Source: an uncultured Gammaproteobacteria bacterium
GTDB taxonomy: Bacteria; Patescibacteriota; Microgenomatia; Daviesbacterales; UBA10151
DNA: 57,853 bases
Assembly: GCA_964406775.1 (NCBI GenBank)
Contig: CAYOSW010000006.1
Span: 1 to 57,853, forward strand
Direction of reading: 5' to 3'
In this document: positions 3,259 through 43,389 of the stretch, in pieces
Layout of the letters: each line of letters begins with the position of its first letter
How positions within the stretch are numbered: the stretch's first letter is position 1
Position numbers and translations under genes: made by a program
The notes under the pieces: generated by a model
Database searches by the model: none
Seen by the model: only the letters and a program-made list of their open reading frames with translations
What the model was told of the DNA's origin: nothing

Positions 3259-4086
3259 TTAATTATCTTTTAGCTGCTCGTACACCGCATTGAAATTTAT
3301 CAATGCAAATGTCATAACAAAGTAAGAGATTAGATAAATGAGATCGTTAACTCCGCTATCAGACCACGTCCCCCTAGATGTCTGATAAAGAAAAGTATAA
3401 TCAGCTAAGAACTGTACAAGAAGCGCAAATATTACAAATAATATTTTGCTTTTCATAATTCCGCCTAAAACACCCTTGGATAATATGTAAGTACTTATGC
3501 CTAAAGATATATAAATTGCGGCTCCCAATGGATATCCGAAATCTAAAAATACCTTGACCGGATTCGACCAATCAAAAGTATATTCCTGTAAAAATAGATA
3601 GTACCCTAGCCCAAGCAAAGCAAAAGTCACAATAGAAGCAGGCACTATTCGCTTTATCGATTTTATGTACAATCCAACCCCCGAAGCTTTGGCTAAGAAA
3701 AGAATCCCTAGACAATAAAACGGAATCGTCCCGAAAAATCCGACATCACCAAGTGAAGGATAGTCCGCTGTTTGAAGATTTTTCACAATGTAATAGTAAG
3801 AATACGTCAGCTGACCAAATTCCTGTAGCAATAGACCGATCGAAAACATAACAAGCGACTTACCAAGGACACTTTTTATACCACCCCACTTCTGAGCCAC
3901 CAATATCCCACAATACGCACCCCATAAAGCCGTCAGCCCATACAATGTGCTGAATGTGTAGATCTGATGGTGATGATTATCCTGTCCCGCAAAAAAATTT
4001 TGAAATACTATCCAATAAACCACAAAAAATGCAAAGATAAAAATCGCCCCGAATTTCAATAGATTAGAATTAATTTTTTTAATCAT
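3259..4086 (-). CDS. Stand-alone 7-TM membrane sensor-like protein
   Basis: About 7 hydrophobic segments; YPSLGDVGFF motif of the type seen in membrane sensor domains N-terminal to kinases/GGDEF proteins; no catalytic domain. Confidence 0.7.
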   Translation of the reverse strand: MIKKINSNLLKFGAIFIFAFFVVYWIVFQNFFAGQDNHHHQIYTFSTLYGLTALWGAYCGILVAQKWGGIKSVLGKSLVMFSIGLLLQEFGQLTYSYYYIVKNLQTADYPSLGDVGFFGTIPFYCLGILFLAKASGVGLYIKSIKRIVPASIVTFALLGLGYYLFLQEYTFDWSNPVKVFLDFGYPLGAAIYISLGISTYILSKGVLGGIMKSKILFVIFALLVQFLADYTFLYQTSRGTWSDSGVNDLIYLISYFVMTFALINFNAVYEQLKDN

Positions 4087-5075: not shown

Positions 5076-5963
5076 AATAATTCCTACGAAAGCTATAATT
5101 CCAAATACTCCTTTTTTTAGAAAACCTTTAAAAGATATGTCTTCTTTAAATACTCCAGGCACTAGCAGAGATAGAATTATTCCGAGGATTATACCGAAAA
5201 ATATTTGCGTGCTTCCGAGAACGGATACTAAGGCAGCAGGGCCGATAGCAACTGCCAAATAAGTTAAAATCTTTCCTCCTAAAAATAAAGACTCATTAAT
5301 CATCACTAGTCCTAAAACAGACTGCTTAATTTTACTGAGAGTTTTCGTAAAAGCTTTTTTGATTTTCGGAATAAGAAGCAAAAGTATTATGCCTCCGATA
5401 AAAACTCCGAGACTTTCATAAGCGATCAAACTGCGGAATGATATTGAAGAAGAAGCATATTTGATAAAAATATAAGGCAACGCCCAGAGAATATCTGCGA
5501 CGAGCATATAAAAAATAGCATTTGATAGTTTAAATTTATTTTTTTCCTTTTTAAATGAAACAAACACTGAAGATAAGGTTAATAAAATAAATCCCACCAG
5601 CTGTTTGTTCGTTATTGTTTCTCCAAGGAAAAGATAGGAAAGCAAAAGGACAATCACCGGAACGATCTGGATCATTATTATGATCAGACTGGTTTCCTCT
5701 TTAATTAAAGCCTCCAGATATATCGAAAAAGCCCAGATTGTAAATACGCCGCTTAAAATAACTAGTAAAGCATCGGTAAGACCTAAAAACATTCCCCCGC
5801 TTAGGGACAGTACAATAAAAACAGGAAGTGCCAAGATTGCACTAAAGATCGGAAGCGCCCGGTAATCCGGAAACTTTGATTCAATCAGGTATTTATCGAG
5901 GAAAACATTAACCGCATAAACAAAAGGAGCGAGTAAAGCTAAAAAAACCCAATTCATCTCCAA
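5064..5963 (-). CDS. EamA/DMT-family transporter
   Basis: 10 TM in two EamA-like halves; ALVSVLGSTQ. Confidence 0.85.
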   Translation of the reverse strand: MEMNWVFLALLAPFVYAVNVFLDKYLIESKFPDYRALPIFSAILALPVFIVLSLSGGMFLGLTDALLVILSGVFTIWAFSIYLEALIKEETSLIIIMIQIVPVIVLLLSYLFLGETITNKQLVGFILLTLSSVFVSFKKEKNKFKLSNAIFYMLVADILWALPYIFIKYASSSISFRSLIAYESLGVFIGGIILLLLIPKIKKAFTKTLSKIKQSVLGLVMINESLFLGGKILTYLAVAIGPAALVSVLGSTQIFFGIILGIILSLLVPGVFKEDISFKGFLKKGVFGIIAFVGIILVS

Positions 5964-6448
5964 CCTTCAGATTGATAAACAGCCATCACTAAAACACTTG
6001 CCGGGTGCCCTTTTACCTGGTCTATGGAGACCTCCAGTTTCATTCTTTCTTCCTCAAAATTAATGCCCCTGAAAGTACACAAATCTTTAAGAGAATTTTT
6101 AATTCTAAAATGAAGCTCGGACTCAACAGCAACCCGCGTATCCCCTATTAAGTGGTGTTCGACAAACAATCCCCTGCCATCATCAAGCTGATACCAACCT
6201 ACCCCGGCTGCTATAAATTTACCTGCCTCATTGCTCCTCTCCTCTGCCATAACGCAATAAAGTCTGTGTCCCCACTCATTTTCGGGTGTTTCAAAACGCT
6301 CGGATTTATGAACTCTGGAGGCCGGAGGAATTACGGAAGATAATGTAATTAAGTTGTAGTTATATACACCTGCGTCTTTTAGTGCCGCATCGAATGCTGA
6401 AAGCGGTGTCGAAGCCTGACCCACACCTTTAACTATTTTTATATCCAC
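5954..6448 (-). CDS. pdaD: Pyruvoyl-dependent arginine decarboxylase
   Basis: LSAFDAALKDAGVYNYNLITLSSVIP with the Ser-Ser self-cleavage site; IAAGVGW; ASVLVMAVY. Confidence 0.88.
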   Translation of the reverse strand: MDIKIVKGVGQASTPLSAFDAALKDAGVYNYNLITLSSVIPPASRVHKSERFETPENEWGHRLYCVMAEERSNEAGKFIAAGVGWYQLDDGRGLFVEHHLIGDTRVAVESELHFRIKNSLKDLCTFRGINFEEERMKLEVSIDQVKGHPASVLVMAVYQSEGWR

Positions 6449-14340: not shown

Positions 14341-14547
14341 GAAATTGCGCAGCAATTTCAAAAGGAGGAGTAGCGACGAGTTTGATTTGCAAAGCAAACA
14401 AACTCTAAACCAGTCTCTAACGCGTGGCGAAGGAGAGACAACACACCCTTTGCTCCGCAAAGGCGAACTAAATCGGAGATTTTGATCGATTCTTATTCCT
14501 GTGACAAAACTTTTCAAAATCGGCTGAAGCCAATCCCGAAAAGTTTG
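14341..14547. repeat. Cluster of palindromic hairpins downstream of tRNA-Leu, three with a TTGC-NNN-GCAA core
   Basis: 14341-14359, 14378-14405 and 14447-14463 share the core; further stems at 14413-14439 and 14505-14547. Confidence 0.7.
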
Positions 14548-14630
14548 TGCCGAAGGAGAGACTCGAACTCTCAAGGCCTTGCGACCAATAGTTTTTGAGA
14601 CTATCGCGTATACCATTCCGCCACTTCGGC
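14548..14630 (-). tRNA. tRNA-Leu (CAA), CCA not encoded
   Basis: GCCGAAG acceptor, GGAATGGTATAC D arm, ATAGT-CTCAAAA-ACTAT anticodon arm, long variable arm, GTTCGAGTC T loop; TG-g-TATAAT promoter at 14645-14650. Confidence 0.97.
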
Positions 14631-19478: not shown

Positions 19479-20221
19479 AGAAAAGTAAAAAGTACGAGAC
19501 TCGAAGTATGAAAAAATATTTAGTTGTTATATCCCTAATTCTTACTTCATACTTCATACTTCATACTTCCACATCTGCCCAAACTGCAACACCCTCAGGA
19601 TCATTAATTGAAAAGCTGGATGCATTAAAGAAAGAAATTGCCTCAAAAGCCGCTGAAATTAAAACTGAGATAAATAAAAAGGTTCAGGACAAGGCAATAA
19701 TGGGAACTATTTTAAAGATTGAAGATTCGCAAATTGTGATTGAATCATTAAACGGCAATAAAAACGTTAAGTACGATGAATTTACGGAAGTTATCGGACT
19801 AGGTAATAAAAAAATAAAGATTCAGACTCTTGAGGAAAAAGACGGTATTGCTGCCCTCGGAGATGTTGATGATAAAAACACTCTTGTCGCAAAAAGGCTG
19901 GTTTTCCTTCCTGATTTCGCGACTGGTTCCGCTGAATTGGTTTGGGGACAGATTCAAAAATCTTCCGGAGGCACTATTACAGTAAAGACAAAATCCGGCC
20001 AAACCGATACGGTTTTAACTAACGGACAAACGGAATTTTTCCTCGGAAATAATGAATCCTCTTTTGCTGATGCCAAACCGGAAAAATTTATGACCGCCCG
20101 GGGAATCAGACTCAAGGACGGGAGTCTCCGGGCAAGATTTATTTATTTCATACCGTCTGTAGGATTTGTTAAACCTGATAAAAACAAAACGGCAACCAAA
20201 AGTTCTGAGGCTAAAAATTAA
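19475..20221 (+). CDS. Secreted protein: coiled coil plus two DUF5666-like OB-type repeats
   Basis: Signal peptide ending TSAQ; repeated G.I.K..G..I.V...... motif; likely start at the second ATG (19508). Confidence 0.7.
   Translation: MKKSKKYETRSMKKYLVVISLILTSYFILHTSTSAQTATPSGSLIEKLDALKKEIASKAAEIKTEINKKVQDKAIMGTILKIEDSQIVIESLNGNKNVKYDEFTEVIGLGNKKIKIQTLEEKDGIAALGDVDDKNTLVAKRLVFLPDFATGSAELVWGQIQKSSGGTITVKTKSGQTDTVLTNGQTEFFLGNNESSFADAKPEKFMTARGIRLKDGSLRARFIYFIPSVGFVKPDKNKTATKSSEAKN
19543..19569 (+). repeat. Heptamer tandem repeat (TACTTCA) x about 4 inside signal-peptide coding sequence
   Basis: tacttca tacttca tacttca tacttc. Confidence 0.9.
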
Positions 20222-21330
20222 AGATATTTATCTTTTTGTTCTTCCTTCAATTTTTCAACAACTTTTTTAACATCCTGAGTCGCATTATTCTTGGCAATGA
20301 GAAGGGTGTCGCCGGTATCGATAATAATCAAATCCTCGACACCTACCGCCGCTACCAGTTTTTTACCGGCATCGATAAGTAAGTTTTTACTTCCGATATT
20401 CACAACCTCAGTCTCGCCGTTAACGGCCAGTCCGTGCATATTTTTTTCCCGTAGATCAAATACAACTTTCCAATCCCCTACGTCCGACCAACCGAAATCG
20501 CCGGGAATGACAACCAGATTCTTAACTTTTTCCGAAACTTCGTAATCGATCGAATCCGGACTGCCTAATTTTCCATAGACTTCTTCAAGAAGTTTATCCA
20601 GATTTTCTTTCCCGGCTTTTTCGGATATTTCCTTAACGCCTTTATACACTTCCTGTGAATACTCCTCGAACGCTTTCATAATCGAATTAGTCGACCAGCA
20701 GTATAAATTGGCGTTCCAGAGGTACTGACCCGAGGCAACAAAAGATTGAGCGGTGACCAGATTCGGTTTCTCTTTAAATTCAACCCCTTTAAAAACAAAT
20801 CCTTTTTCGGCAACTCCAGAAAGTTCTTCTAGCTCCTTTCCTATTTTTATATAACCCAAACCGGTATGGGGAAATTCAGGCTTAATCCCGACCGCCACAA
20901 TATAGTCACCCGAGGAAGCAACACGTAAAGCCGCGAGAGCATTCATCCGGAAGCGTTCTTCGTTCTTAATCACGTGATCCGCGGCAAGATAAATTACAGA
21001 AGCATTCGGATTTCTGGAATGGATAACCGCGGCTGCAGTACCCATAGCCATCGCAGTATTTTTAGCAACCGGCTCCCCTATGATATTTTTTTCAGGGATT
21101 TTAGGAAGCTGCTCAGCCACTTCCTTAGCGTGTGCCTTATTAGTAATAACGTAGATGTTTTCTGCAGGAACAAGACCGTCAACCCGCTCGTAAGTAGTCT
21201 GAACTAAAGTTTTATCTCCCAAAAGTTTTAATAAATGTTTCGGATGTGCTTTGCGGGATGCAGGCCAAAGGCGTGTTCCTCCTCCTCCGGCCAAAATTAC
21301 AGCATAATAATTTTCGGTATTTTCACTCAC
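20218..21330 (-). CDS. manC: Mannose-1-phosphate guanylyltransferase
   Basis: ILAGGGGTRLWPASR..PK, FKEKP, WNANLY, SIDYEVSE, WSDVGDW. Confidence 0.92.
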   Translation of the reverse strand: MSENTENYYAVILAGGGGTRLWPASRKAHPKHLLKLLGDKTLVQTTYERVDGLVPAENIYVITNKAHAKEVAEQLPKIPEKNIIGEPVAKNTAMAMGTAAAVIHSRNPNASVIYLAADHVIKNEERFRMNALAALRVASSGDYIVAVGIKPEFPHTGLGYIKIGKELEELSGVAEKGFVFKGVEFKEKPNLVTAQSFVASGQYLWNANLYCWSTNSIMKAFEEYSQEVYKGVKEISEKAGKENLDKLLEEVYGKLGSPDSIDYEVSEKVKNLVVIPGDFGWSDVGDWKVVFDLREKNMHGLAVNGETEVVNIGSKNLLIDAGKKLVAAVGVEDLIIIDTGDTLLIAKNNATQDVKKVVEKLKEEQKDKYL

Positions 21331-21396: not shown

Positions 21397-21425
21397 TTGA
21401 CAAATTAAATCCTGTTTGCTAAACT
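21397..21425 (+). promoter_or_regulatory. Sigma70 promoter of the hisG leader
   Basis: TTGACA-17-TAAACT. Confidence 0.85.
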
Positions 21426-21448
21426 TTATTTCTTAACATTTAAATACA

Positions 21449-21635
21449 AGCGCTATTACCGGAGTCACGATCCGGGAGCTGAGGGCCAAATACCCTACGG
21501 AAGTGAAACCGTAAAATATCACAGACGATGTCACAGTAAACTGCGGAGTCGCCACTAAGAGTCTTAAGAAAGAAATTTTTTAGGAAACAAGGATGGGACC
21601 GCGGGAGCGGTCTTTTTTTGACCCTTCCGTTCCTT
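21449..21635 (+). ncRNA. T-box riboswitch, histidine-specific (predicted)
   Basis: Stem III CTTAAGAAA-gaaa-TTTTTTAGG, then AAACAAGGA-TGGGACC-GCG. Antiterminator: AAGGA/TCCTT and GCGGGAG/CTTCCGT around a 7-nt bulge at 21594-21600. CAC codons at 21466-68, 21520-22 and 21532-34. Confidence 0.88.
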
Positions 21636-21680
21636 GATCACTACTTTATTTGTAGTGGCCAAAGAACGGGAGGTTTTTTT
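21623..21680 (+). terminator. Intrinsic terminator mutually exclusive with the T-box antiterminator
   Basis: CCTTCCGTTC...GAACGGGAGG stem followed by a T run; shares CTTCCGTTCCTT with the antiterminator. Confidence 0.9.
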
Positions 21681-21707
21681 ATCTTTAAGAATTAGACAAA
21701 TTTTATT

Positions 21708-22628
21708 ATGTTAGATCAGGAACAACGACTAAGATTATCTATACAGAAAGGCAGCAGACTTGGAGAAAAATCCGAGGCGATTCTTCGTGCTGGTGGGTTA
21801 AAATTTCAGGGATTTGACGGAAGTGCAAGGCTTTTTAGCCCCGTATCGGGATTTCCGCTTGATATTTATTTTGACAGACACAACGATATTGCGGAAAACG
21901 TCGAAGCTGGCGTAACCCATTTAGGAATAGTCGGGCAAAACATAGTTACGGAATCGAGAGTGAGAGTTACGCAGCTTATGACTTTAGGATTTGGAAGGTG
22001 CCGCTTAGTAGTTGCAGCTCCCAAAGGAATCACATCAGTCGAACAATTAAGCGGAGGCACGATAGTCACTAGTTATCCAAATTCTGCAGACGACCACTTC
22101 GGTTTGCGAGGAGTCAAAGTAAGCGTGGTAGAGAGGTCAGGATCTATAGAATCATATGTCGGACGCGGATATGACGGGATTGTGGATTTAGTAGATACAG
22201 GGCGAACCCTTAGGGAACAAGGATTGTTCGAGGTAGAAGAAATATACAAATCAGAGGCTGTTTTAGTAGCCGATCCAAATATTAAGAATATAAAGGGCGC
22301 GGAGCGGGTTGTTTTGAGCGTAGTAAGAAGAATATTATCCGCGCAACGAGCTGAGGGCAAAACTTACATAGCCTTGAACGCGCCAACGAAGGCAATCCCA
22401 CAGATTGCTGAGAGAATCCCCGGGGAAACATCCCCAACAGTGAGCCGTTTAAAAAAGAGGGGCTGGTCAGCAGTGTCCGTAGTGGTTCCGAAAGATCAGC
22501 TTGATGAGATCGTTGATGATATTCAAGAATGTGGAGCAGAAAAAATAGTAGAACTTGCAATGCCCAGAATGTTTCCTGATAGAAATGATCCAGAAGTTTT
22601 GGCAATCATGAGTAAGCTTAATAAATAA
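21708..22628 (+). CDS. hisG: ATP phosphoribosyltransferase, long form with C-terminal regulatory domain
   Basis: LSIQKGSRL, LGIVGQN..E, LGFGRCRL, TSYPN, GSIE, IVDLVDTGRTL; HisG_C (LNAP..PTVS.L..W.AV). Confidence 0.93.
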   Translation: MLDQEQRLRLSIQKGSRLGEKSEAILRAGGLKFQGFDGSARLFSPVSGFPLDIYFDRHNDIAENVEAGVTHLGIVGQNIVTESRVRVTQLMTLGFGRCRLVVAAPKGITSVEQLSGGTIVTSYPNSADDHFGLRGVKVSVVERSGSIESYVGRGYDGIVDLVDTGRTLREQGLFEVEEIYKSEAVLVADPNIKNIKGAERVVLSVVRRILSAQRAEGKTYIALNAPTKAIPQIAERIPGETSPTVSRLKKRGWSAVSVVVPKDQLDEIVDDIQECGAEKIVELAMPRMFPDRNDPEVLAIMSKLNK

Positions 22629-22678: not shown

Positions 22679-23896
22679 ATGAAACTGCAAACACCAAAAG
22701 GATTCAGGGATTTTTTGCCGGTAGACGCGCTGAAGCGCGAGGCTATTCTTGAGAAAATCATAGCGGTCTATAAAAAATTCGGTTTTGAACCTCTGGAAAC
22801 GCCTACTCTCGAGTTTGAAGAAACTCTGATGGGTAAATACGGTGAAGAAGAAAAACTTATTTACAGCTTTGAATCCAAGGGCGGTGATAAATTAGCGCTA
22901 AGATACGACCAGACAATTCCTCTTGTGAGAGTCATAGCCCAATGGGGTCCGGTGGGCGCTCAAAAAATAATTCTGCCATTTAAACGCTACCAGGTTCAGA
23001 GCGCTTTCCGCGGAGAAAATACCCAAAAAGGCCGGTACAGGGAATTCCTGCAGTGTGATGCGGACATAGTCGGAGTCTCAACTCCTCTTTGTGATGCGGA
23101 AATTCTGGCGCTGGTTTATGAAATTTATAAAGCTTTAAATATCGAAGTTGTAATAAAGGTCAACGACAGATCATTAATTTCCGAATTTGAACCAAAATAT
23201 TTATCAGCTATCGACAAACTTAACAAAATCGGCACCGAAGGGGTTATTGCCGAACTTTCCGCAAAGGGAATGACCGGGACCGAGGCTGCCCAGACTATGG
23301 AGAAAATTAAACAGCTTAAGCCGTCGGATAATTTACAGGAATCAATTACCACTTTTGAAAAAATGGGTTATCCTGCCGAGGCATTAGAGTTCTCCCCCAC
23401 TTTAGTACGCGGACTGGATTATTACACCGGGATAATACTCGAAGTTGTATTAAAAAACGATCCGAACGGTTCATCCATCGCCGGAGGCGGACGGTACGAT
23501 AAGATTATCGGACAATTCACAGGAATTGATATTCCGGCTGTCGGTTTCTCTATCGGTTTTGACCGGACTTTGGAAATTCTCGAGCAGTACAACCTAATGC
23601 CGAAAGTGCAAACCCCGACTCAGGTTATGGTCGTCTTCAATTCGGCAGATTTTGAGACAAAAGCATTATCGATTCTTGCAAATTTAAGAAATTCAGGGAT
23701 AAACGCCGAGATTTGGCTTGATCCGGCTACAAAACTTGAGAAGCAGCTAAAATACGCCGATGCAAAAGGCATAGGATTTATGGTTATTGTCGGACTTTTG
23801 GAGAACGAACCGGAGAATCAGGTTATATTAAAGAATTTGAGCGAAAGATCCCAGGAAACTGTTGAAATTCCGCAACTGATCGAAAAATTGAAGTGA
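22679..23896 (+). CDS. hisS: Histidine--tRNA ligase
   Basis: PKGFRD, LRYDQT, FRGENTQKGRYREFLQCDAD, RGLDYYTG, GGGRYD, GFDR; C-terminal anticodon-binding domain. Confidence 0.95.
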   Translation: MKLQTPKGFRDFLPVDALKREAILEKIIAVYKKFGFEPLETPTLEFEETLMGKYGEEEKLIYSFESKGGDKLALRYDQTIPLVRVIAQWGPVGAQKIILPFKRYQVQSAFRGENTQKGRYREFLQCDADIVGVSTPLCDAEILALVYEIYKALNIEVVIKVNDRSLISEFEPKYLSAIDKLNKIGTEGVIAELSAKGMTGTEAAQTMEKIKQLKPSDNLQESITTFEKMGYPAEALEFSPTLVRGLDYYTGIILEVVLKNDPNGSSIAGGGRYDKIIGQFTGIDIPAVGFSIGFDRTLEILEQYNLMPKVQTPTQVMVVFNSADFETKALSILANLRNSGINAEIWLDPATKLEKQLKYADAKGIGFMVIVGLLENEPENQVILKNLSERSQETVEIPQLIEKLK

Positions 23897-24837
23897 ATTC
23901 GGAAATTCTAAAAAAACCGGTCTTTTACTTAGCTATAATTGCTGCCCACGCTATTTGGGGCGGGAATTATGTTTTTGCCAAAATTACCCTTGAGGAAATC
24001 CCCGTAATGTCACTCGGTTTTTTGCGTTACGGACTTGCCAGCCTTCTCATAATCCCCTTTCTCTTAAGTCTTGAGGGGAAGGATAAAAAAATCAGAATTG
24101 ATCATCTTCCGAAACTGGTTTTCGGAGCATTGCTTATTGCCTGTATAAACATCGCGTTTTTCTATATGGGTTTAAAACGCACTACGGCTATCGACGCATC
24201 AGTCCTCGAATTATCAATTCCTGTTATCTCGGTAATCGCCGGATGGTGGTTTTTAAAGGAAAAAATCTACTCCGCTAATTTAGTCGGAATTATCATCAGT
24301 CTTCTCGGAGCTTTATCGGTTATCGGAATCCCTCTTTTATTTTTCGGCAACTTCTCAAGCAAGCAACTTTCGGGCAATTTATTAATACTTGCCTCCTCAG
24401 TCTCTTTTGTAATCGGATCGATGATTTTTAAGTCTATGCTTAAAACTTATAAACCCGTCGTTCTTACGGCAGTAACTTTTCTTATTGCCACAGTTGCCTT
24501 TGCACTTCCGGCTTTTATGGAATATCTGCAAAACCCCGGTTGGATTTTAAAGGTTAGTATATTGGGGATTTTCGGTTTGATTTATATTACGGTCCTCTCT
24601 TCAATTTGCGCGTATTTCCTGCTTCTTTGGGGTCTTAATAGGATTCCGTTGTCCCACGCCAATATGATTCAATATCTGGAACCGGCTGTTGCCGCAACCC
24701 TCGCTGTCCCACTTTTGGGCGAGCGTATTTCTTTTTCTTTTATTATCGGCACCTGCCTGATAATTTTAGGCGTATATTGGGGTACGCTAGGTAAAGACGA
24801 ACACCACCATATCCGCCACAAACACCATAGAAGCTAG
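23893..24837 (+). CDS. EamA/DMT-family transporter with His-rich C-terminal tail
   Basis: 10 [19 protein letters not shown]; GTGA overlap with the hisS stop; ends [12 protein letters not shown]. Confidence 0.88.
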
Positions 24838-39098: not shown

Positions 39099-41324
39099 AT
39101 GAAGCAAATTATTGCCGCCGTGCTAATAATTGTCGCTATCATAAGCCTGATTGTTATCGCCTTTACAGTTAACCAAGTCAGTTATGAGCAGCAAAGACTT
39201 CAATCCGATCTTCAATACCGTTCTACCCTTCTGGCTGACAGTTTAAAAGAAACGATTGAGCCTAACTTCATCAATAAATCCGATGACTATCTTCAAAGTG
39301 TTGTTGAACGGTTTACAAGTAAGGAGCGATTTGCAGGGCTAGGTATTTATGATAATAAAAACCAGATAATAGCTCTCTCTTCAACCCTTCCCGAATCGAC
39401 GTCTGCAGCTTCTGAAATAGTAGCTAATGCAATGGATGAAGATAAGCCAAGTGGAGATTTCGCCTCACTAGATAATAAAAAAATTTATCTCCTTGCAGTT
39501 CCTTTACATAATAACAAAAGTGTTGTCGGGGCTATGCTTATTGCCCAAAATGCAAATTACATTGATGACCGACTGTTTGAAATTTGGCGAAATAATCTGA
39601 TCCGTCTTTTGATCCAGGCATCACTTTTATCTTTGGCTACGATATTACTAATCAGGTGGATTATTTATGAGCCTATTAAAGGACTTGTAGATAACATCAA
39701 GTTAGCCCGTATGGGTCAAGCCGGTAAAAATCCTAAAAATCTAGCCGGATCATTTTTCTTCCGTCCGTTGATTAAAGAAATTTCCAATATGCGCGATAGT
39801 CTTATGGAAGCAAGGGGGTCTGCCAGCGAGGAAGCCAGGTTGAGACTCGAGAAACTAGATTCTCCTTGGACCTCGCAAAGATTGAAGGAATTTATTAAAG
39901 ATATCTTAAAAGGCAGGCAAATATTTATGGTCTCCAACCGAGAGCCATATATTCATACAAAGAACGGGGGTAAAATTACTTACTATTTTCCCGCCAGTGG
40001 AATGGCAACTGCGATCGAGCCTGTTATGCAGGCCTGCGGCGGTACTTGGATAGCTCACGGTAGCGGAGATGCTGATAAATTAGTCGTTGATAAGAATGAC
40101 CGGATAAGCGTTCCGCCTGATGAGCCTAAATATACTTTAAAACGGGTCTGGCTTACACCGGAGGAAGAAAATGGTTATTATTACGGATTCTCCAATGAAG
40201 GTTTATGGCCGTTATGCCACATAGCCCACAACAGGCCGATCTTTAAAAAAGAGGATTGGGTTGAGTATCAAAGAGTAAACCGCAAATTTGCCGAGGCTGT
40301 ATTAGCTGAAACAAAAAATCAGGACAGGCCAATTGTTTTGATTCAGGATTTCCATCTTAGCTTAGTTCCGAGGATGGTTAAGGAGAAAAAACCCGGCGCA
40401 GTTGTTGGAATATTTTGGCATATCCCCTGGCCTAATCCCGAATCATTCAGCATTTGCCCCTGGAAAAAAGAGATTTTAGACGGAATTCTCGGTGCTGACC
40501 TCATAGGGTTCCATACTCAACTCCACTGTAATAATTTTATAGAAACAGTAGGCCGCGAATTAGAATCCTTGATTGATTTTGAACGATTTACCATAACCCG
40601 TAACAATCATAGCTCTTATATCAAGCCCTTCCCTATTAGTATTTCCTTCCCAAACGGCAATAAAAACTCTCCTGAACCTAATGAGAAAGCCGATCTGATG
40701 AAGGATTTGGGTATTAAAAGCAAATATATCGGCTTAGGTGTTGAGCGGCTTGATTATACGAAAGGAATTTTAGAACGTTTTAAATCAATTGAGATATTCT
40801 TAACAAAATATCCAACCTACCGCGAAAACTTCACCTTCGTCCAGATTGCTGCGCCTAGCCGAACTAAAGTTAAAAAATACCGTGATTTTGCGGTTGAAGT
40901 CAGGGATGAGGCAAAGAGAATTAATCAATTATTTGAAACTGATAAATGGAAACCAATCTTACTTCTGGAAAAACATCACAATCATGAAGAAATCCAGAAG
41001 TTCTTCAGGTCAGCCGATTTCTGTATGGTTTCGTCACTCCACGATGGAATGAATTTAGTAGCTAAGGAATTTGCTGCCGCCCGGGATGATGAAAAAGGGG
41101 TTCTAATTTTAAGCCAATTCACTGGTGCCTCAAGAGACCTAAAAAGCGCTTTAATTGTCAACCCTTATAACGGTGAACAATCGGCTGATGCCATTAAAGA
41201 AGCTCTAGAGATGCCGCTTAGAGAGCAAACTAAAAGGATGCACGAGATGAGAGAAAATATTAAAAACTACAATGTATATAGGTGGTCTGCCGAACTTCTT
41301 AAAACAATAGTTGGTTTGGGTTAG
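39099..41324 (+). CDS. otsA: Trehalose-6-phosphate synthase (GT20) fused to an N-terminal TM-periplasmic sensor-TM-HAMP-like module
   Basis: [49 protein letters not shown]; first ~250 aa have two TMs flanking a ~140-aa loop. Confidence 0.9.
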
Positions 41325-41339
41325 TATGAAAGATTCCCT

Positions 41340-42554
41340 ATGACAAATGACCTAAAAAAAACAATAAGTAACTTAATGCTTTCCAACAGAAGACACAAGG
41401 AAAGGTATTTTTACACTGTTCCTTCTCCTGAATCGTACCCATATCAGTGGCTCTGGGATTCCTGTTTTCATTCGATAATTCTTTCCCACTTTGATATGAG
41501 TTCCGCGAAGCGAGAACTTCTATCCTTATTTGTCAGGCAATTTGAAAACGGTATGATCCCGCATATGATTTATTGGCAGAAAAAAACCGCAAGCGATTTT
41601 CCTGTCATCGAGTGGGGCAAGGAAGATACAAGTTCTATCACTCAACCACCTATGCTTGCCTACTCTGTTTGGCAAATTTACCAAAAAGATAAGAGTAAAA
41701 AATTTTTAGATCAACTTTATCCGAATTTAACTAAATTTTACCGATATTTTTTAGAATACCGCGATTTTAGAGGAAACAATCTAATCAGTATTATTAATCC
41801 CGATGAATCAGGTGAGGACAACTCCCCTAGGTTCGATGTTGTTCTTGGACTTCCCCCAAAACACAATTTAAAGGAGAATTTTAAGAAGCGTCTTGAGTTA
41901 ATTCAGAGAAACCGCGAGTGCAAATTTAATGCCCGAACTTGTATGAAAAACTTCTTTTGGGTTAAGGATGTTCCGTTTAACTCTATCTTAGTAGAGAACC
42001 TAAAATGCCTCTCGGATATAGCATCCGCCTTGGGTAAACACGAAGATGCAGATTTATTTTTTGATCAAAGTAAATTAATTTCTGCAGCAATGAGAAAACA
42101 TATGTTAGAGGACGGGGTATTCTGGTCACTTCATTCCAAAATGGATATTGTTGGAGAAAAAATCAACTACAAAAAAATTAAAACAAAAACCTGGGCAATT
42201 TTTGCTCCTCTTTTTGCTAAACTCTATACTAAATCCGAAGCTAATAAGATTATAAAAAAGTATTTACAAAATGAAAAAGAATTTAACGCGCCGTTTTTAG
42301 TCCCGACAGTATCACGCTCGGAAGAATCCTTTAACCCTGACGGTTTTTGGCGGGGGCCCGTTTGGATGGCAACAAACTGGTTTATCTATAAAGGATTACA
42401 AAAGTACGGATATGAAACATTGGCCGAAAAAATTAAGCGGTCAAGTCTTAATCTAGTAATAAAAAGCGGTTTTCGGGAACAGTACAATCCTTTAACCGGA
42501 GAGGGATACGGGGCAAAAAATTTTACTTGGGGTGGTTTGGTAATTGATATGTAG
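41340..42554 (+). CDS. GH63-like (alpha/alpha)6 glycoside hydrolase (MGH1 / trehalase-like)
   Basis: YPYQWLWDS, GMIPH, ITQPP, ESGEDNSPRFD, FWRGPVW, FREQYNP..G.G. Confidence 0.85.
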   Translation: MTNDLKKTISNLMLSNRRHKERYFYTVPSPESYPYQWLWDSCFHSIILSHFDMSSAKRELLSLFVRQFENGMIPHMIYWQKKTASDFPVIEWGKEDTSSITQPPMLAYSVWQIYQKDKSKKFLDQLYPNLTKFYRYFLEYRDFRGNNLISIINPDESGEDNSPRFDVVLGLPPKHNLKENFKKRLELIQRNRECKFNARTCMKNFFWVKDVPFNSILVENLKCLSDIASALGKHEDADLFFDQSKLISAAMRKHMLEDGVFWSLHSKMDIVGEKINYKKIKTKTWAIFAPLFAKLYTKSEANKIIKKYLQNEKEFNAPFLVPTVSRSEESFNPDGFWRGPVWMATNWFIYKGLQKYGYETLAEKIKRSSLNLVIKSGFREQYNPLTGEGYGAKNFTWGGLVIDM

Positions 42555-42558
42555 AATT

Positions 42559-43389
42559 ATGCTTAATTTTTGGGGAAATAAAGAAAATTTAGAAGGTCTT
42601 CTTAAAAAAAATAAAACAACTCTTTTGTTTCTGGATTTTGATGGCACTTTAGCGCCGTTTGCACCCATACCGACAAGTGCCAGTCTGCCGAGAAAAACGG
42701 GATTAGTGTTAGAAAAGCTGGTAAAAATCAGGTCATTATCAATTATCATAATTAGCGGCAGAACCCTGAACGACTTAAAAGACAAAATTAATCTAACCGG
42801 ACTTAATTATTCTGGAAGCCACGGGTCGGAATGGGTTATCAACAAAGAAAGTTTTAGTGCAGAAATATCATCAGAAACAACCCAAATTCTTCAAGATATC
42901 AAGCGGGATATGGAATTAATCTGTACTGAGTTTGAAGGTGCTTTAGTTGAAAGGAAAATTTTTTCTGTTGTAGCCCATTATAGACGAGTTAGACAAGACA
43001 GAAAAAAAGACTTAAAGTGGGCGTTGCAAAATACAATGGCAAAATATTTGGATACCGGTCTTGTTTCTTTAATTTGGGATAAAGAGGCATATGAATTACG
43101 CACAGAAACCGGCTGGACAAAAGGTGTGCTTGCTAAGAAATTACTACCAAACGGGGAGGAATGTATTTTTATAGGAGATAGCGAAACCGACGAGGAAGCT
43201 TTTAGACAACTGCCTGATTCTCTAACCATCAGAGTCGGCTTTTCAGAAAACTCTTCGGCAAAATACTTTTTAAGGGATGTTCAGGATGTCCATAAATTTT
43301 TAATCTGGCTACTGAGCGCCTATCAGTCAAAAAAACTTTTAAAAGGATCCGGCAGCAATAATAATCAGAAATATCCCAATAGTATTTAG
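42559..43389 (+). CDS. otsB: Trehalose-6-phosphate phosphatase (HAD IIB)
   Basis: LFLDFDGTLAP, ISGR, GSHG.E, KG, IGDSETDEEAF. Confidence 0.9.
   Translation: MLNFWGNKENLEGLLKKNKTTLLFLDFDGTLAPFAPIPTSASLPRKTGLVLEKLVKIRSLSIIIISGRTLNDLKDKINLTGLNYSGSHGSEWVINKESFSAEISSETTQILQDIKRDMELICTEFEGALVERKIFSVVAHYRRVRQDRKKDLKWALQNTMAKYLDTGLVSLIWDKEAYELRTETGWTKGVLAKKLLPNGEECIFIGDSETDEEAFRQLPDSLTIRVGFSENSSAKYFLRDVQDVHKFLIWLLSAYQSKKLLKGSGSNNNQKYPNSI

Follow-up and report, generated by a model that had tools for sequence, protein, structure and literature searches.

A candidate minimal histidine T-box leader upstream of hisG-hisS-eamA in a Daviesbacteria-like genome

The hisG locus and its leader

The window (the whole stretch of DNA that was analysed, 57,853 nucleotides) carries a promoter and a leader of ~275 nt, which together span positions 21397-21707 on the plus strand and precede three genes. 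The features are listed below in window coordinates.

21397-21402 (TTGACA) and 21420-21425 (TAAACT), plus strand: sigma-70-type promoter with a 17-nt spacer and a TG-extended -10 box; 10 of 12 matches, TG before the -10 box
21449-21480, plus strand: ultrashort Stem I, supported by covariation in relatives; basal helix AGC 21449-51 / GCU 21478-80
21482-21496, plus strand: mini Stem II, AGGG / CCCU with the A-rich loop CCAAAUA; 99.7% of cells paired, compensatory changes at all 4 pairs
21497-21522, plus strand: Stem IIA (ACGG 21497-500 / CCGU 21509-12) and the IIB pseudoknot, supported by covariation
21524-21553, plus strand: extra hairpin between the pseudoknot and Stem III; 10 pairs, 82.8% paired, 8 with compensatory changes
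21557-21587, plus strand: 5' half of the discriminator, with AAGAG 21557-61, Stem III 21562-71 / 21576-85 (loop GAAA) and AA 21586-87
21588-21636, plus strand: antiterminator, with helix A1 CAAGGA 21588-93 / UCCUUG 21631-36; Rfam alignment
21595-21614, plus strand, with a U-run to 21619: T1, an early terminator-like hairpin, GGGACCGC-GGGA-GCGGUCUU; terminator-like in the sequence scan
21622-21673, plus strand, then U7 at 21674-80: T2, the main intrinsic terminator; -27.8 kcal/mol
21708-22628, plus strand: hisG, long-form ATP phosphoribosyltransferase, 306 aa, first regulated gene; Pfam HisG 2e-39, HisG_C 1e-19
22679-23896, plus strand: hisS, histidyl-tRNA synthetase with anticodon-binding domain, 405 aa; Pfam tRNA-synt_His 5e-37, HGTP_anticodon 1.5e-12
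23893-24837, plus strand: eamA-family transporter gene, last of the unit, 4-nt overlap with hisS; Pfam EamA 1e-44

A TTGACA/-10 pair is found at the equivalent place in four related loci (L018, L101, L108 and L246), and transcription from the window promoter would start near 21432, ~7 nt past the -10 box. The ManC-like gene upstream lies on the minus strand, ends at 21330 and diverges from the leader, so T1 and T2 cannot belong to it and were ruled out as its terminators.

The regulated unit comprises hisG-hisS-eamA, because a full-length hisS begins 50 nt past hisG and eamA overlaps hisS. When the 50-nt gap between hisG and hisS was scanned, no promoter-like and no terminator-like site was found, and hisS is probably co-transcribed with hisG. 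The same hisG-hisS order occurs in L001, L246 and L004, and the hisS-EamA pair recurs behind related leaders and also in L246, L247 and L248. Only five close homologs of the window HisG were obtained (L001-L005); the contigs that carry them end before Stem I, and L002 has no leader upstream of its hisG. The preliminary description of this DNA had presented hisG as a lone gene. No second his biosynthetic gene lies within the 57.8-kb window, but hisG is the first gene of an operon with hisS and eamA. The window HisRS is closest to that of Candidatus Daviesbacteria (72% identity), and the CPR sources of related leaders are Microgenomates, Gottesmanbacteria and Saccharimonadales, in agreement with the CPR-like host suggested earlier.

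The T-box sequence, AGGAUGGGACCGCG at 21590-21603, has 13 of 14 matches to the 14-nt T-box consensus AGGGUGGNACCGCG (PMC11297988) and is the sole such core within the window. It contributes the 7-nt bulge UGGGACC (21594-600) of the antiterminator, which continues into helix A2 (GCGGGAG 21601-07 / CUUCCGU 21624-30) and a short extension of A2 (GGUC 21609-12 / GACC 21620-23) capped by U7. The calculated energy of the antiterminator is -13.1 kcal/mol, or -22.3 kcal/mol with the extension. Through its 5' strand T2 shares sequence with the 3' strands of both A1 and A2, and terminator and antiterminator are mutually exclusive. The preliminary description had already recognised the promoter, Stem III, a textbook antiterminator with a UGGGACC bulge and an overlapping intrinsic terminator, and each of these was recovered here. 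As a separate observation, the expression platform holds a second terminator-like hairpin, T1, beyond the single terminator described earlier.

Related leaders, covariation and specificity

The whole of the Rfam T-box model RF00230 (positions 1-219) could be aligned to 21446-21637 with 38.1 bits and E = 5e-7 in a 501-nt search, far below the gathering score of 93. A search with Rfam T-box models had been proposed in the preliminary description, and the outcome is thus a complete but sub-threshold alignment. The gathering-threshold Rfam scan of the window gave no T-box and a tRNA-Leu alone, none of 19 loci with related leaders yielded a T-box at threshold, and a relaxed Rfam search of L246 (E <= 1) gave no T-box match. 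The leader folds with z = -4.1 relative to dinucleotide shuffles.

Metagenomes and genomes of CPR bacteria contributed more than 120 related leaders among the matches listed. A pattern that demanded AGTCACG and GGATGGGACCGCGG supplied the larger part of the comparison set, so that both blocks are invariant by construction; the loop is tested independently by only five leaders, four found by the T-box core alone (L002 site 2, L018, L101 and L108) and one by protein (L246). In every one of these the loop reads AGUCACG(A/C). A scan of genome contigs with the 14-mer GGATGGGACCGCGG gave at least 120 matches, nearly all of them chance matches in G+C-rich genomes, and the T-box leaders among the matches listed were L018, L101, L108 and L102 only. 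L102, labelled Gammaproteobacteria, has the same core with a different and longer 5' domain and was left out, and L180 and L203 from the metagenome scan were dropped as apparent chance matches. A regular-expression search for the non-His cores UGG[A/C/U]ACC over 0.89 Mb of related loci and the window found none.

Covariation was assessed in 78 non-redundant leaders over 36 pairs in 8 helices. Paired cells amounted to 87.7%, compared with 64.4% in shuffles and 29-41% in slid controls, and double-change cells numbered 669 compared with 194 in shuffles. The observed covariation score was reached by none of 500 shuffles, all eight helices covary, and RNAalifold reported compensatory changes in 18 of 22 pairs. 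Conservation in homologous leaders, on which the preliminary description had made its reading depend, is seen for the antiterminator and for all eight helices.

Stem I consists of a basal helix (95% paired in relatives, with AU/UA and GC/CG swaps), an asymmetric internal loop (GCUAUUA / GA) and a 5-bp apical helix, CCGGA 21459-63 / UCCGG 21471-75, which is 92% paired in relatives with 19-44 double changes per pair. The apical helix measures 5 bp in 78 of 78 leaders, and CG, GC, UA and AU were each found at four of its five pairs; in L246, which is the nearest of the relatives, the helix is compensated to UUGGA/UCCAA. The long Stem I with K-turn, specifier internal loop (S-turn) and distal elbow platform is absent. 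A canonical GA/GA K-turn is found in only 14 of the 78 leaders, and the window has UA/GA. In the Rfam alignment the 75-nt Stem I interior is deleted, its 75 model positions being replaced by 6 nt. The ultrashort Stem I proposed earlier is borne out both by this deletion and by the covarying 5-bp helix.

Across the leaders Stem II has 4 bp closed by an A-rich loop of 6-8 nt and lacks the two-stranded S-turn, the loop being CCAAAUA or CCAAAAUG in 55 of 78. In the IIB pseudoknot the loop GUGA (21503-06) pairs with UCAC (21519-22), and the pairs are 82-87% paired with 5-33 double changes each (GUGA/UCAC, GUUA/UAAC, GUUG/CAAC and GGC/GCC). In the discriminator, AAGAG is invariant or nearly so in the alignment of relatives, compensatory changes were found at 6 of 6 counted pairs of Stem III, and the conserved purines flanking Stem III (RRRxG ... 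AA) are present. The basal pair of A2 is G.U in 77 of 77 leaders. The fourth A2 pair in the same 77 is GC in 63, AU in 8 and GU in 5, with compensatory G:C to A:U changes, and the sixth pair of A1 is UA in 22, CG in 10 and UG in 7.

The 7-nt Stem I loop, GUCACGA (21464-70), holds the specifier CAC at 21466-68, in agreement with the regulated hisG and hisS. Two further CAC triplets, at 21520 and 21532, had been flagged in the preliminary description as alternative specifiers, and both proved to be structural: CAC 21520-22 is the 3' strand of the covarying IIA/B pseudoknot, and CAC 21532-34 sits in the extra hairpin, where most relatives show GUCGC in place of the GUCAC of the window. Among the matches listed, a tRNA gene comes next on the same strand in 27 of 121 leaders. 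All 27 are tRNA-His(GUG) genes with C73, and 26 of them encode G-1. The UGGG bulge matches C73, which is also present in a tRNA-His gene of L002. A tRNA-His gene was sought in the 57.8-kb window and none was found, so C73 is known from the relatives only, the window being without a tRNA-His of its own genome. The gene families downstream of related leaders include HisG, HisS, HisE, HisD, HisI, HisC and peptidases. The histidine specificity put forward earlier is upheld by the loop of the independently retrieved relatives, the linked tRNA genes and the downstream his genes and hisS.

Proposed mechanism and alternative readings

From this architecture the leader is very probably a histidine-specific minimal T-box that regulates hisG-hisS-eamA transcription in a genome of Daviesbacteria type (Microgenomates, CPR); tRNA binding, sensing of aminoacylation, read-through and the role of T1 are what we infer. 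The decoding module would consist of the 5-bp Stem I with the His codon loop, mini Stem II, the IIA/B pseudoknot and the extra hairpin. The loop G-U-CAC-G-A would present the codon in the fashion of an anticodon loop, with U before and a purine after, and the module would bind the GUG anticodon of tRNA-His without contacting the tRNA elbow. The discriminator (AAGAG-Stem III-AA with A1, bulge and A2) would test the tRNA 3' end, U21594-G-G-G21597 pairing with A76-C75-C74-C73, and an amino acid esterified to that end would be kept out sterically by the conserved basal G.U pair of A2. Uncharged tRNA-His would allow the antiterminator (21588-21636) to form and the polymerase to read into hisG. Otherwise the bulge would fold into T1 (21595-21614), the freed 3' strands would form T2, and transcription would stop before hisG. 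T1 with its U-run might then act as a first, weaker checkpoint (termination or pausing) that is antagonised directly by the tRNA 3' end.

The T-box bulge provides the 5' strand of T1, so that the bulge nucleotides for pairing with the tRNA 3' end are sequestered in this hairpin. Pairing is possible in two registers, GGGACCGC/GCGGUC and GGGACC/GGUCCU, and the hairpin in either register followed by a U-run of at least 4 was found in 74 of 78 non-redundant leaders. T1 is transcribed ahead of the 3' strands of A2 and A1. It is also kept in ~9 leaders that have a Shine-Dalgarno sequestrator platform and no T2. T2, on the other hand, belongs to an element ..GAACGGGAGG plus U6-7 found in 65 (+3 weak) of 77 non-redundant leaders, and its strands change together (CCUCUCGUU/AACGGGAGG and CCCUCGUU/AACGAGGG).

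We tentatively propose, as a possibility that we regard as rather doubtful, that these leaders form a distinct minimal CPR T-box lineage in which an elbow-free transcriptional decision is taken at two checkpoints. At T1, the first, the tRNA 3' end would itself serve as an antiterminator strand, competing for UGGG before A1 and A2 exist; the second would be the choice between antiterminator and T2. In about one fifth of the lineage the switch would also gate a tRNA-His gene, and the riboswitch would therefore control the supply of its own ligand. Termination at an efficient T1 would be beyond downstream rescue, and a terminator role for T1 therefore rests on direct competition by 4 bp of tRNA pairing, a contact that may be too weak to outcompete T1 directly.

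The same riboswitch can also be read with T2 as the sole termination point and T1 as an anti-antiterminator, a clamp on the OFF state in which the bulge and the 5' strand of A1 are masked, as a hairpin-dependent pause, or as both, and we consider this reading a serious one that falls just short of being probable. T1 has a stem of just 5-8 bp (-6.6 to -12.7 kcal/mol across leaders, -12.7 kcal/mol in the window), and pairing of the U-run with the purine-rich A1 5' strand lowers the window value to -16.3 kcal/mol. In ~13 of 30 leaders with long A2 inserts the antiterminator conformer pairs the U-run to a downstream A-run, which suggests that the T1 U-run is also structural in role. Moreover, elbow docking speeds tRNA capture in transcriptional T-boxes (PMC7583486); a pause would therefore compensate for the missing docking, giving the elbow-less decoding module time to capture tRNA before T2. 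Against a clamp or pause, a conserved G+C-rich hairpin with U6-7 directly behind it is what marks an intrinsic terminator, and the U-tract is kept in leaders without T2, where neither a pause nor a clamp needs one.

It is improbable that the window leader acts on translation by sequestration of the ribosome-binding site, in the manner of actinobacterial ileS T-boxes. To date, ultrashort Stem I has been associated with T-boxes that act on translation (PMC7583486), and ~9 Saccharimonadales-type leaders (L108, L128 and L144 among them) swap T2 for a helix that pairs AAGGAGG, 5-8 nt before the start codon, with the antiterminator 3' strand. In the window, however, the switch strand pairs on its 3' side with GAACGGGAGG; U7 comes next and ends 27 nt before the ATG. 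The MFE fold leaves the spacer 21681-21707 unpaired, and this spacer has no Shine-Dalgarno sequence of the GGAG type. The same terminator recurs in the large majority of leaders counted above. Control by termination rather than translation, as put forward in the preliminary description, thus fits the window, which has T2 with U7 and no sequestered Shine-Dalgarno sequence.

A decaying or non-functional T-box, left after deletion of a his operon down to hisG, is very improbable. Such a history would fit the syntenic Daviesbacteria locus L247, where hisC, B, H, A, F, I and E lie upstream of hisS-eamA (the upstream end, the expected place of hisG and hisD, is missing from the recovered sequence), whereas the window and L246 keep hisG alone of the his biosynthesis genes; it would also fit L248, in which hisS has no T-box, and the score far under the Rfam threshold. 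However, all helices of the window are intact and the changes relative to the 92%-identical L246 are compensatory. hisG is under strong purifying selection (dN/dS = 0.03 relative to L001, the measure being saturated for hisS and for more distant hisG pairs), and low Rfam scores are common to the class as a whole.

Finally, a T-box for another tRNA has practically nothing to recommend it: the 7-nt loop formally holds four further triplets besides CAC (other frames giving GUC Val, UCA Ser or ACG Thr) and the two structural CACs lie nearby, but CAC is central in the loop with U before and a purine after, the bulge N is G and demands C73, the 27 linked tRNA genes are all for tRNA-His with C73, and the regulated genes are his genes and hisS.

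Significance and comparison with known systems

The histidine T-box reading would place T-box regulation in the candidate phyla radiation. No record of a T-box in CPR bacteria was found in a literature search over ~8.3 million full texts or in the TBDB paper and its supplement, and the earlier remark that none is known to have been described in Patescibacteria is consistent with this. In the TBDB paper the ancestral T-box hosts are Firmicutes, Actinobacteria, Chloroflexi and Deinococcus-Thermus. As far as sequence comparison can tell, a hidden minimal T-box type is common in CPR bacteria. The class appears abundant (two scans, each with at least 120 matches, those of the 14-mer scan being nearly all chance), and it lies below the Rfam threshold and is therefore missed by current annotation pipelines. 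It would define a small His regulon of hisG, hisS, an EamA transporter, M15 and M20 peptidases, and SLOG and GNAT proteins, and would mean that bacteria keep watch on the charging of a single tRNA species even when their genomes are reduced.

With ~170 nt up to the T-box sequence, the leader may be smaller than any other natural tRNA sensor working through termination, and its small size would make leaders of this type useful for structural work and engineering. The conserved T1 hairpin with its U-tract, together with the arrangement of a T-box ahead of a tRNA-His gene, offers a testable new regulatory logic.

Class I (transcriptional) T-boxes, covered by RF00230, include Bacillus subtilis tyrS and glyQS, and in Firmicutes His T-boxes are found upstream of hisS or the his operon. 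The window leader shares with them the T-box sequence, the 7-nt UGGN-ACC bulge, A1/A2 with a basal G.U, the purine-flanked Stem III, the IIA/B pseudoknot and a terminator that competes for the antiterminator 3' strands. A specifier ending in C, a bulge N matched to the tRNA discriminator base, and aminoacyl-tRNA synthetase and biosynthesis genes as targets are likewise common to both. In contrast to class I, the window class is without the long Stem I, elbow platform and S-turn specifier loop, and mostly without the K-turn; its Stem II is cut down to 4 bp and an A-rich loop, it has an extra hairpin before Stem III, and it adds the early hairpin and U-run of T1 built from the bulge. The leader also differs in its sub-threshold Rfam score and its CPR host. 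Transcriptional T-boxes are held to need the distal Stem I elbow platform (PMC7583486), and the class would be a natural counter-example to the view that a long Stem I and elbow contact are needed for fast tRNA capture in such T-boxes.

In 2015 Sherwood and co-workers, cited in PMC7583486, reportedly described actinobacterial ileS T-boxes with intermediate or ultrashort Stem I. In a comparison that rests on reviews for the ultrashort Stem I, the window class shares with these class II (translational) leaders, which include the Mycobacterium tuberculosis and Nocardia farcinica ileS structures, a truncated Stem I with loss of the elbow contact, reliance on Stem II, IIA/B and the discriminator, common insertions atop A2 and, in the Saccharimonadales-type relatives only, Shine-Dalgarno sequestration. 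Unlike class II ileS leaders, the window and most of its relatives use an intrinsic terminator and not a sequestrator, and the specifier is His, not Ile. Actinobacterial Stem II keeps the two-stranded S-turn and its K-turn is essential (PMC7583486), whereas both are reduced or absent in the window class.

Stem Sa of staphylococcal glyS T-boxes (PMC9177973) is reportedly likewise a lineage-conserved extra structure inside the antiterminator/terminator domain. T1, in contrast, is no appended stem but arises when the bulge and the 5' strand of A2 adopt a different pairing, and a U-tract comes after it.

In leader-peptide attenuation of the enterobacterial his operon, charged tRNA-His is sensed via ribosome stalling on His codons, and, as proposed for the window, tRNA-His charging decides between terminator and antiterminator upstream of hisG. 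In contrast to that system, the window leader has no leader ORF, and its RNA is proposed to bind the tRNA directly.

Gene order and features of the hisG leader

The leader lies in the 377-nt spacer between a ManC-like gene and hisG, as listed below.

Features of the leader and of the neighbouring genes (window positions)
20218-21330, minus: ManC-like gene, divergent from the leader
21397-21402 and 21420-21425, plus: near-consensus sigma-70-type promoter at the spacer start (TTGACA, 17-nt spacer, TG-extended TAAACT)
21449-21451 / 21478-21480, plus: basal helix
21459-21463 / 21471-21475, plus: Stem I, loop GUCACGA
21482-21485 / 21493-21496, plus: Stem II, loop CCAAAUA
21497-21500 / 21509-21512, plus: Stem IIA
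21503-21506 / 21519-21522, plus: pseudoknot (IIB), GUGA with UCAC
21524-21534 / 21543-21553, plus: extra hairpin
21557-21561, plus: AAGAG
21562-21571 / 21576-21585, plus: Stem III
downstream of Stem III, plus: antiterminator, with helix A1 (CAAGGA/UCCUUG), bulge UGGGACC and helix A2 (GCGGGAG/CUUCCGU)
21622-21673, then U7, plus: main terminator T2, -27.8 kcal/mol
21708-22628, plus: hisG, long form (HisG + HisG_C; Pfam)
50 nt 3' of hisG: hisS, complete, with anticodon-binding domain (Pfam)
4-nt overlap with hisS: EamA transporter gene (Pfam)
3' of the EamA gene: rpmE, then prfB

No promoter-like or terminator-like site was found in the gap between hisG and hisS. In a Pfam sweep of the 49 ORFs of the 57.8-kb window hisG was the sole histidine-biosynthesis gene; the "lone hisG" of the preliminary description holds in this sense, but hisS and the EamA gene follow closely. 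HisG retains the PRPP loop DLVDTGRTL, and hisG exhibits a dN/dS of 0.03 against related locus L001 (strong constraint), and the gene is therefore a working one. A search for tRNA-His genes in the window gave none, the sole tRNA being tRNA-Leu(CAA) at 14547-14630. The window also holds a pyruvoyl-dependent arginine decarboxylase gene (5954-6448) and a trehalose-type cluster (39099-43389) with a 741-aa family 20 glycosyltransferase, an MGH1-like/GH63 glycoside hydrolase and a trehalose-phosphatase.

HisG is part of a very small, divergent clade and is 34-37% identical to HisG behind other CPR leaders. Only five close homologs were found among 5.8 billion proteins, on short contigs (L001-L005) that retain the leader's 3' half and are cut 5' before Stem I. 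The window HisRS shares 72% identity with Candidatus Daviesbacteria proteins, and the nearest relatives of HisRS from another leader subgroup are in Amesbacteria and other Patescibacteria. The syntenic sites form a series: a near-full his operon (hisC, B, H, A, F, I, E) immediately 5' of hisS-eamA-rpmE-prfB in L247 (Daviesbacteria), hisG alone 5' of hisS in the window and L246, and hisS only, without a T-box, in a third genome (L248).

A covarying decoding module, probably specific for histidine

At gathering thresholds no Rfam model matched the leader, nor was there any T-box match at 19 loci with such leaders (0/19), and the leader of L246, the closest relative, stayed without one up to E <= 1. 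With relaxed thresholds RF00230, the T-box model, aligned over its entire length to 21446-21637 with 38.1 bits, below gathering (E = 5e-7 in 501 nt), 6 nt standing in for 75 model positions within the otherwise deleted interior of Stem I. The folding energy of the whole leader was better than that of 200/200 dinucleotide shuffles (z = -4.1).

For comparative analysis 78 leaders, pairwise less than 88% identical, were aligned (alignment A2). RNAalifold predicted both helices of Stem I (basal and apical) as well as Stems II, IIA and III, with compensatory changes in 18 of 22 pairs. When the pseudoknot and the extra hairpin were added (36 pairs, 8 helices), 87.7% of the cells were paired, compared with 64.4% in column shuffles and 29-41% in slid registers; double-change cells numbered 669 against 194 in column shuffles, and the covariation score was 0.625, against 0.19 in column shuffles and at most 0.18 in slid registers; this observed score was reached by none of 500 shuffles. 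L246, whose HisG is 92% identical to that of the window, has UUGGA/UCCAA in place of CCGGA/UCCGG, fully compensated.

The leader is very probably a T-box riboswitch, and the preliminary description, which had read it as one with an ultrashort Stem I and a terminator overlapping the antiterminator, is essentially right. Since all features of the discriminator domain are present, while those of Stem I and a score at the Rfam threshold are lacking, the leader was filed as a variant T-box.

Three CAC triplets had been left open as specifier. The one at 21466 lies in the middle of the loop of Stem I and is supported. CAC at 21520 is ruled out as part of a covarying pseudoknot strand (UCAC, UAAC, CAAC or GCC among leaders), and CAC at 21532 by its replacement with GUCGC in most relatives. 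The specifier ends in C, as do nearly all T-box specifiers (PMC7583486). Loop and T-box core are invariant in the metagenome leaders by construction, both being required by the search pattern, and the loop AGUCACG(A/C) is present in 5/5 leaders retrieved without requiring it (L002 site 2, L018, L101, L108 and L246). The bulge UGGG needs a C73 discriminator to match. In 27 of the 121 unique leaders listed a tRNA gene follows no more than 700 nt further along the same strand; each of the 27 is a tRNA-His(GUG) gene with C73, and G-1 is encoded in 26 of them. Three independent lines, the centred CAC, the UGGG bulge and the linked tRNA-His genes, point to histidine, in line with the earlier reading of bulge, codon and downstream gene.

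Antiterminator and two terminator-like hairpins

The antiterminator has a predicted energy of -13.1 kcal/mol, or -22.3 kcal/mol with a GGUC/GACC extension capped by U7. The basal pair of A2, described as a steric sensor of the aminoacyl group (PMC7583486), is G.U in 77/77 leaders; an internal A2 pair changes from G:C to A:U in eight of 77, and for the outer A1 pair the counts are 22 U:A, 10 C:G and 7 U:G. The strands that close A2 and A1 on their 3' side also serve as the 5' strand of T2, and T2 is found in 65 (plus 3 weak) of 77 leaders with both strands changing together. In about nine Saccharimonadales-type leaders the same strand pairs instead with AAGGAGG right before the start codon, so that both transcriptional and translational versions occur within the lineage.

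A conserved, structured insert of about 85 nt in apical A2 is present in otherwise different leaders, namely L246 2860-2945 (= L001), L189, L225 and L002 1420-1505, and is missing from the window. It has the form GGGUUAAC...GUUAACCC, then GUUUAA-hairpin-UUAAAC; its inner hairpins show compensatory changes, and no Rfam model matched it.

An unexpected element is T1, an early hairpin formed when the bulge, together with the first part of A2, pairs with the few nucleotides that come next, in either of two registers: GGGACCGC-GGGA-GCGGUC (window) or GGGACC-GCGGGA-GGUCCU. The stem (-6.6 to -12.7 kcal/mol) is directly followed by a run of 4-8 U, and the feature occurs in 74/78 non-redundant leaders, those without T2 included. 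In the antiterminator state the U-run forms the A2 loop (majority) or pairs with an A-run further 3', within an extension of A2. T1 is mutually exclusive with A2 and with tRNA pairing at UGGG. It might, tentatively, serve as a first tRNA-sensitive checkpoint by weak termination or pausing; that it merely clamps the OFF state is given roughly equal weight. In L248, a Daviesbacteria genome whose hisS lacks a T-box, a hairpin with U7, GGCCCCAGGAGGGUC UUUUUUU (3960-3990), is located in the 5' UTR immediately ahead of the start codon of hisS.

Related leaders, their genes and known T-boxes

When species genomes were searched for the T-box core by itself, most matches were due to chance; full leaders were found in L018 (Microgenomates-group MAG), L101 (Candidatus Gottesmanbacteria), L108 (Saccharimonadales MAG) and a second site of L002. 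A metagenome scan requiring the loop AGTCACG 100-130 nt 5' of GGATGGGACCGCGG gave at least 120 matches, nearly all real leaders among those listed. In L102 (3750-4090; MAG labelled Gammaproteobacteria) an identical T-box core and antiterminator precede an unannotated 269-aa ORF; the 5' domain there is longer and of another kind, and the T1 hairpin is missing.

Among the first three ORFs after the leaders listed (L126-L245) were HisG (39), HisS (23), HisE (13) and HisD (7), besides HisC-HAD and HisI. Many genes have no obvious histidine link: M15 dipeptidase-like (D-Ala-D-Ala type; 38), SLOG/LDcluster4 (15), EamA (10), GNAT (9) and M20 peptidase (7). The peptidases might free histidine from peptides. 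In L128, L136, L138, L140, L181 and L232 two near-identical leader copies, separated by about 3.5 kb and located on opposite strands, face outward; one points into hisG, the other into a gene for an M15 peptidase or a SLOG protein.

The leader terminator runs directly into a tRNA-His(GUG) gene in L101 (7539-7624), L126, L127, L137, L147, L149, L176, L183, L199, L244 and others, 27 of the 121 leaders in all. In several, G-1 adjoins the U-tract so closely that a separate promoter would not fit, and the next ORF begins 2-25 nt 3' of the tRNA. Judged from this arrangement, the T-box seems to control whether its own ligand's gene is transcribed, for which no description was found in the literature.

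The preliminary description knew of no T-box from Patescibacteria, and searches in the full texts of one library likewise found none for Patescibacteria, candidate phyla radiation, Saccharibacteria or TM7, an absence that is not proof. The ancestral range in the TBDB supplement comprises Firmicutes, Actinobacteria, Chloroflexi and Deinococcus-Thermus, and the TBDB short-Stem-I model was applied solely to Actinobacteria and Rfam-model hits (TBDB paper).

The leader is very probably a minimal, CPR-wide, histidine-specific T-box of a type predicted to act mostly via termination. Compared with known T-boxes its discriminator domain is canonical, whereas the decoding module lacks the distal platform and the specifier internal loop, and all that remains of Stem II is a hairpin whose loop is A-rich. 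Only 14/78 leaders have a GA/GA K-turn, the window having UA/GA. A long Stem I is generally required in transcriptional T-boxes because elbow docking speeds tRNA capture, and an ultrashort Stem I is tied to translational T-boxes of Actinobacteria (PMC7583486); in contrast to the latter, the window and most relatives end in terminator T2.
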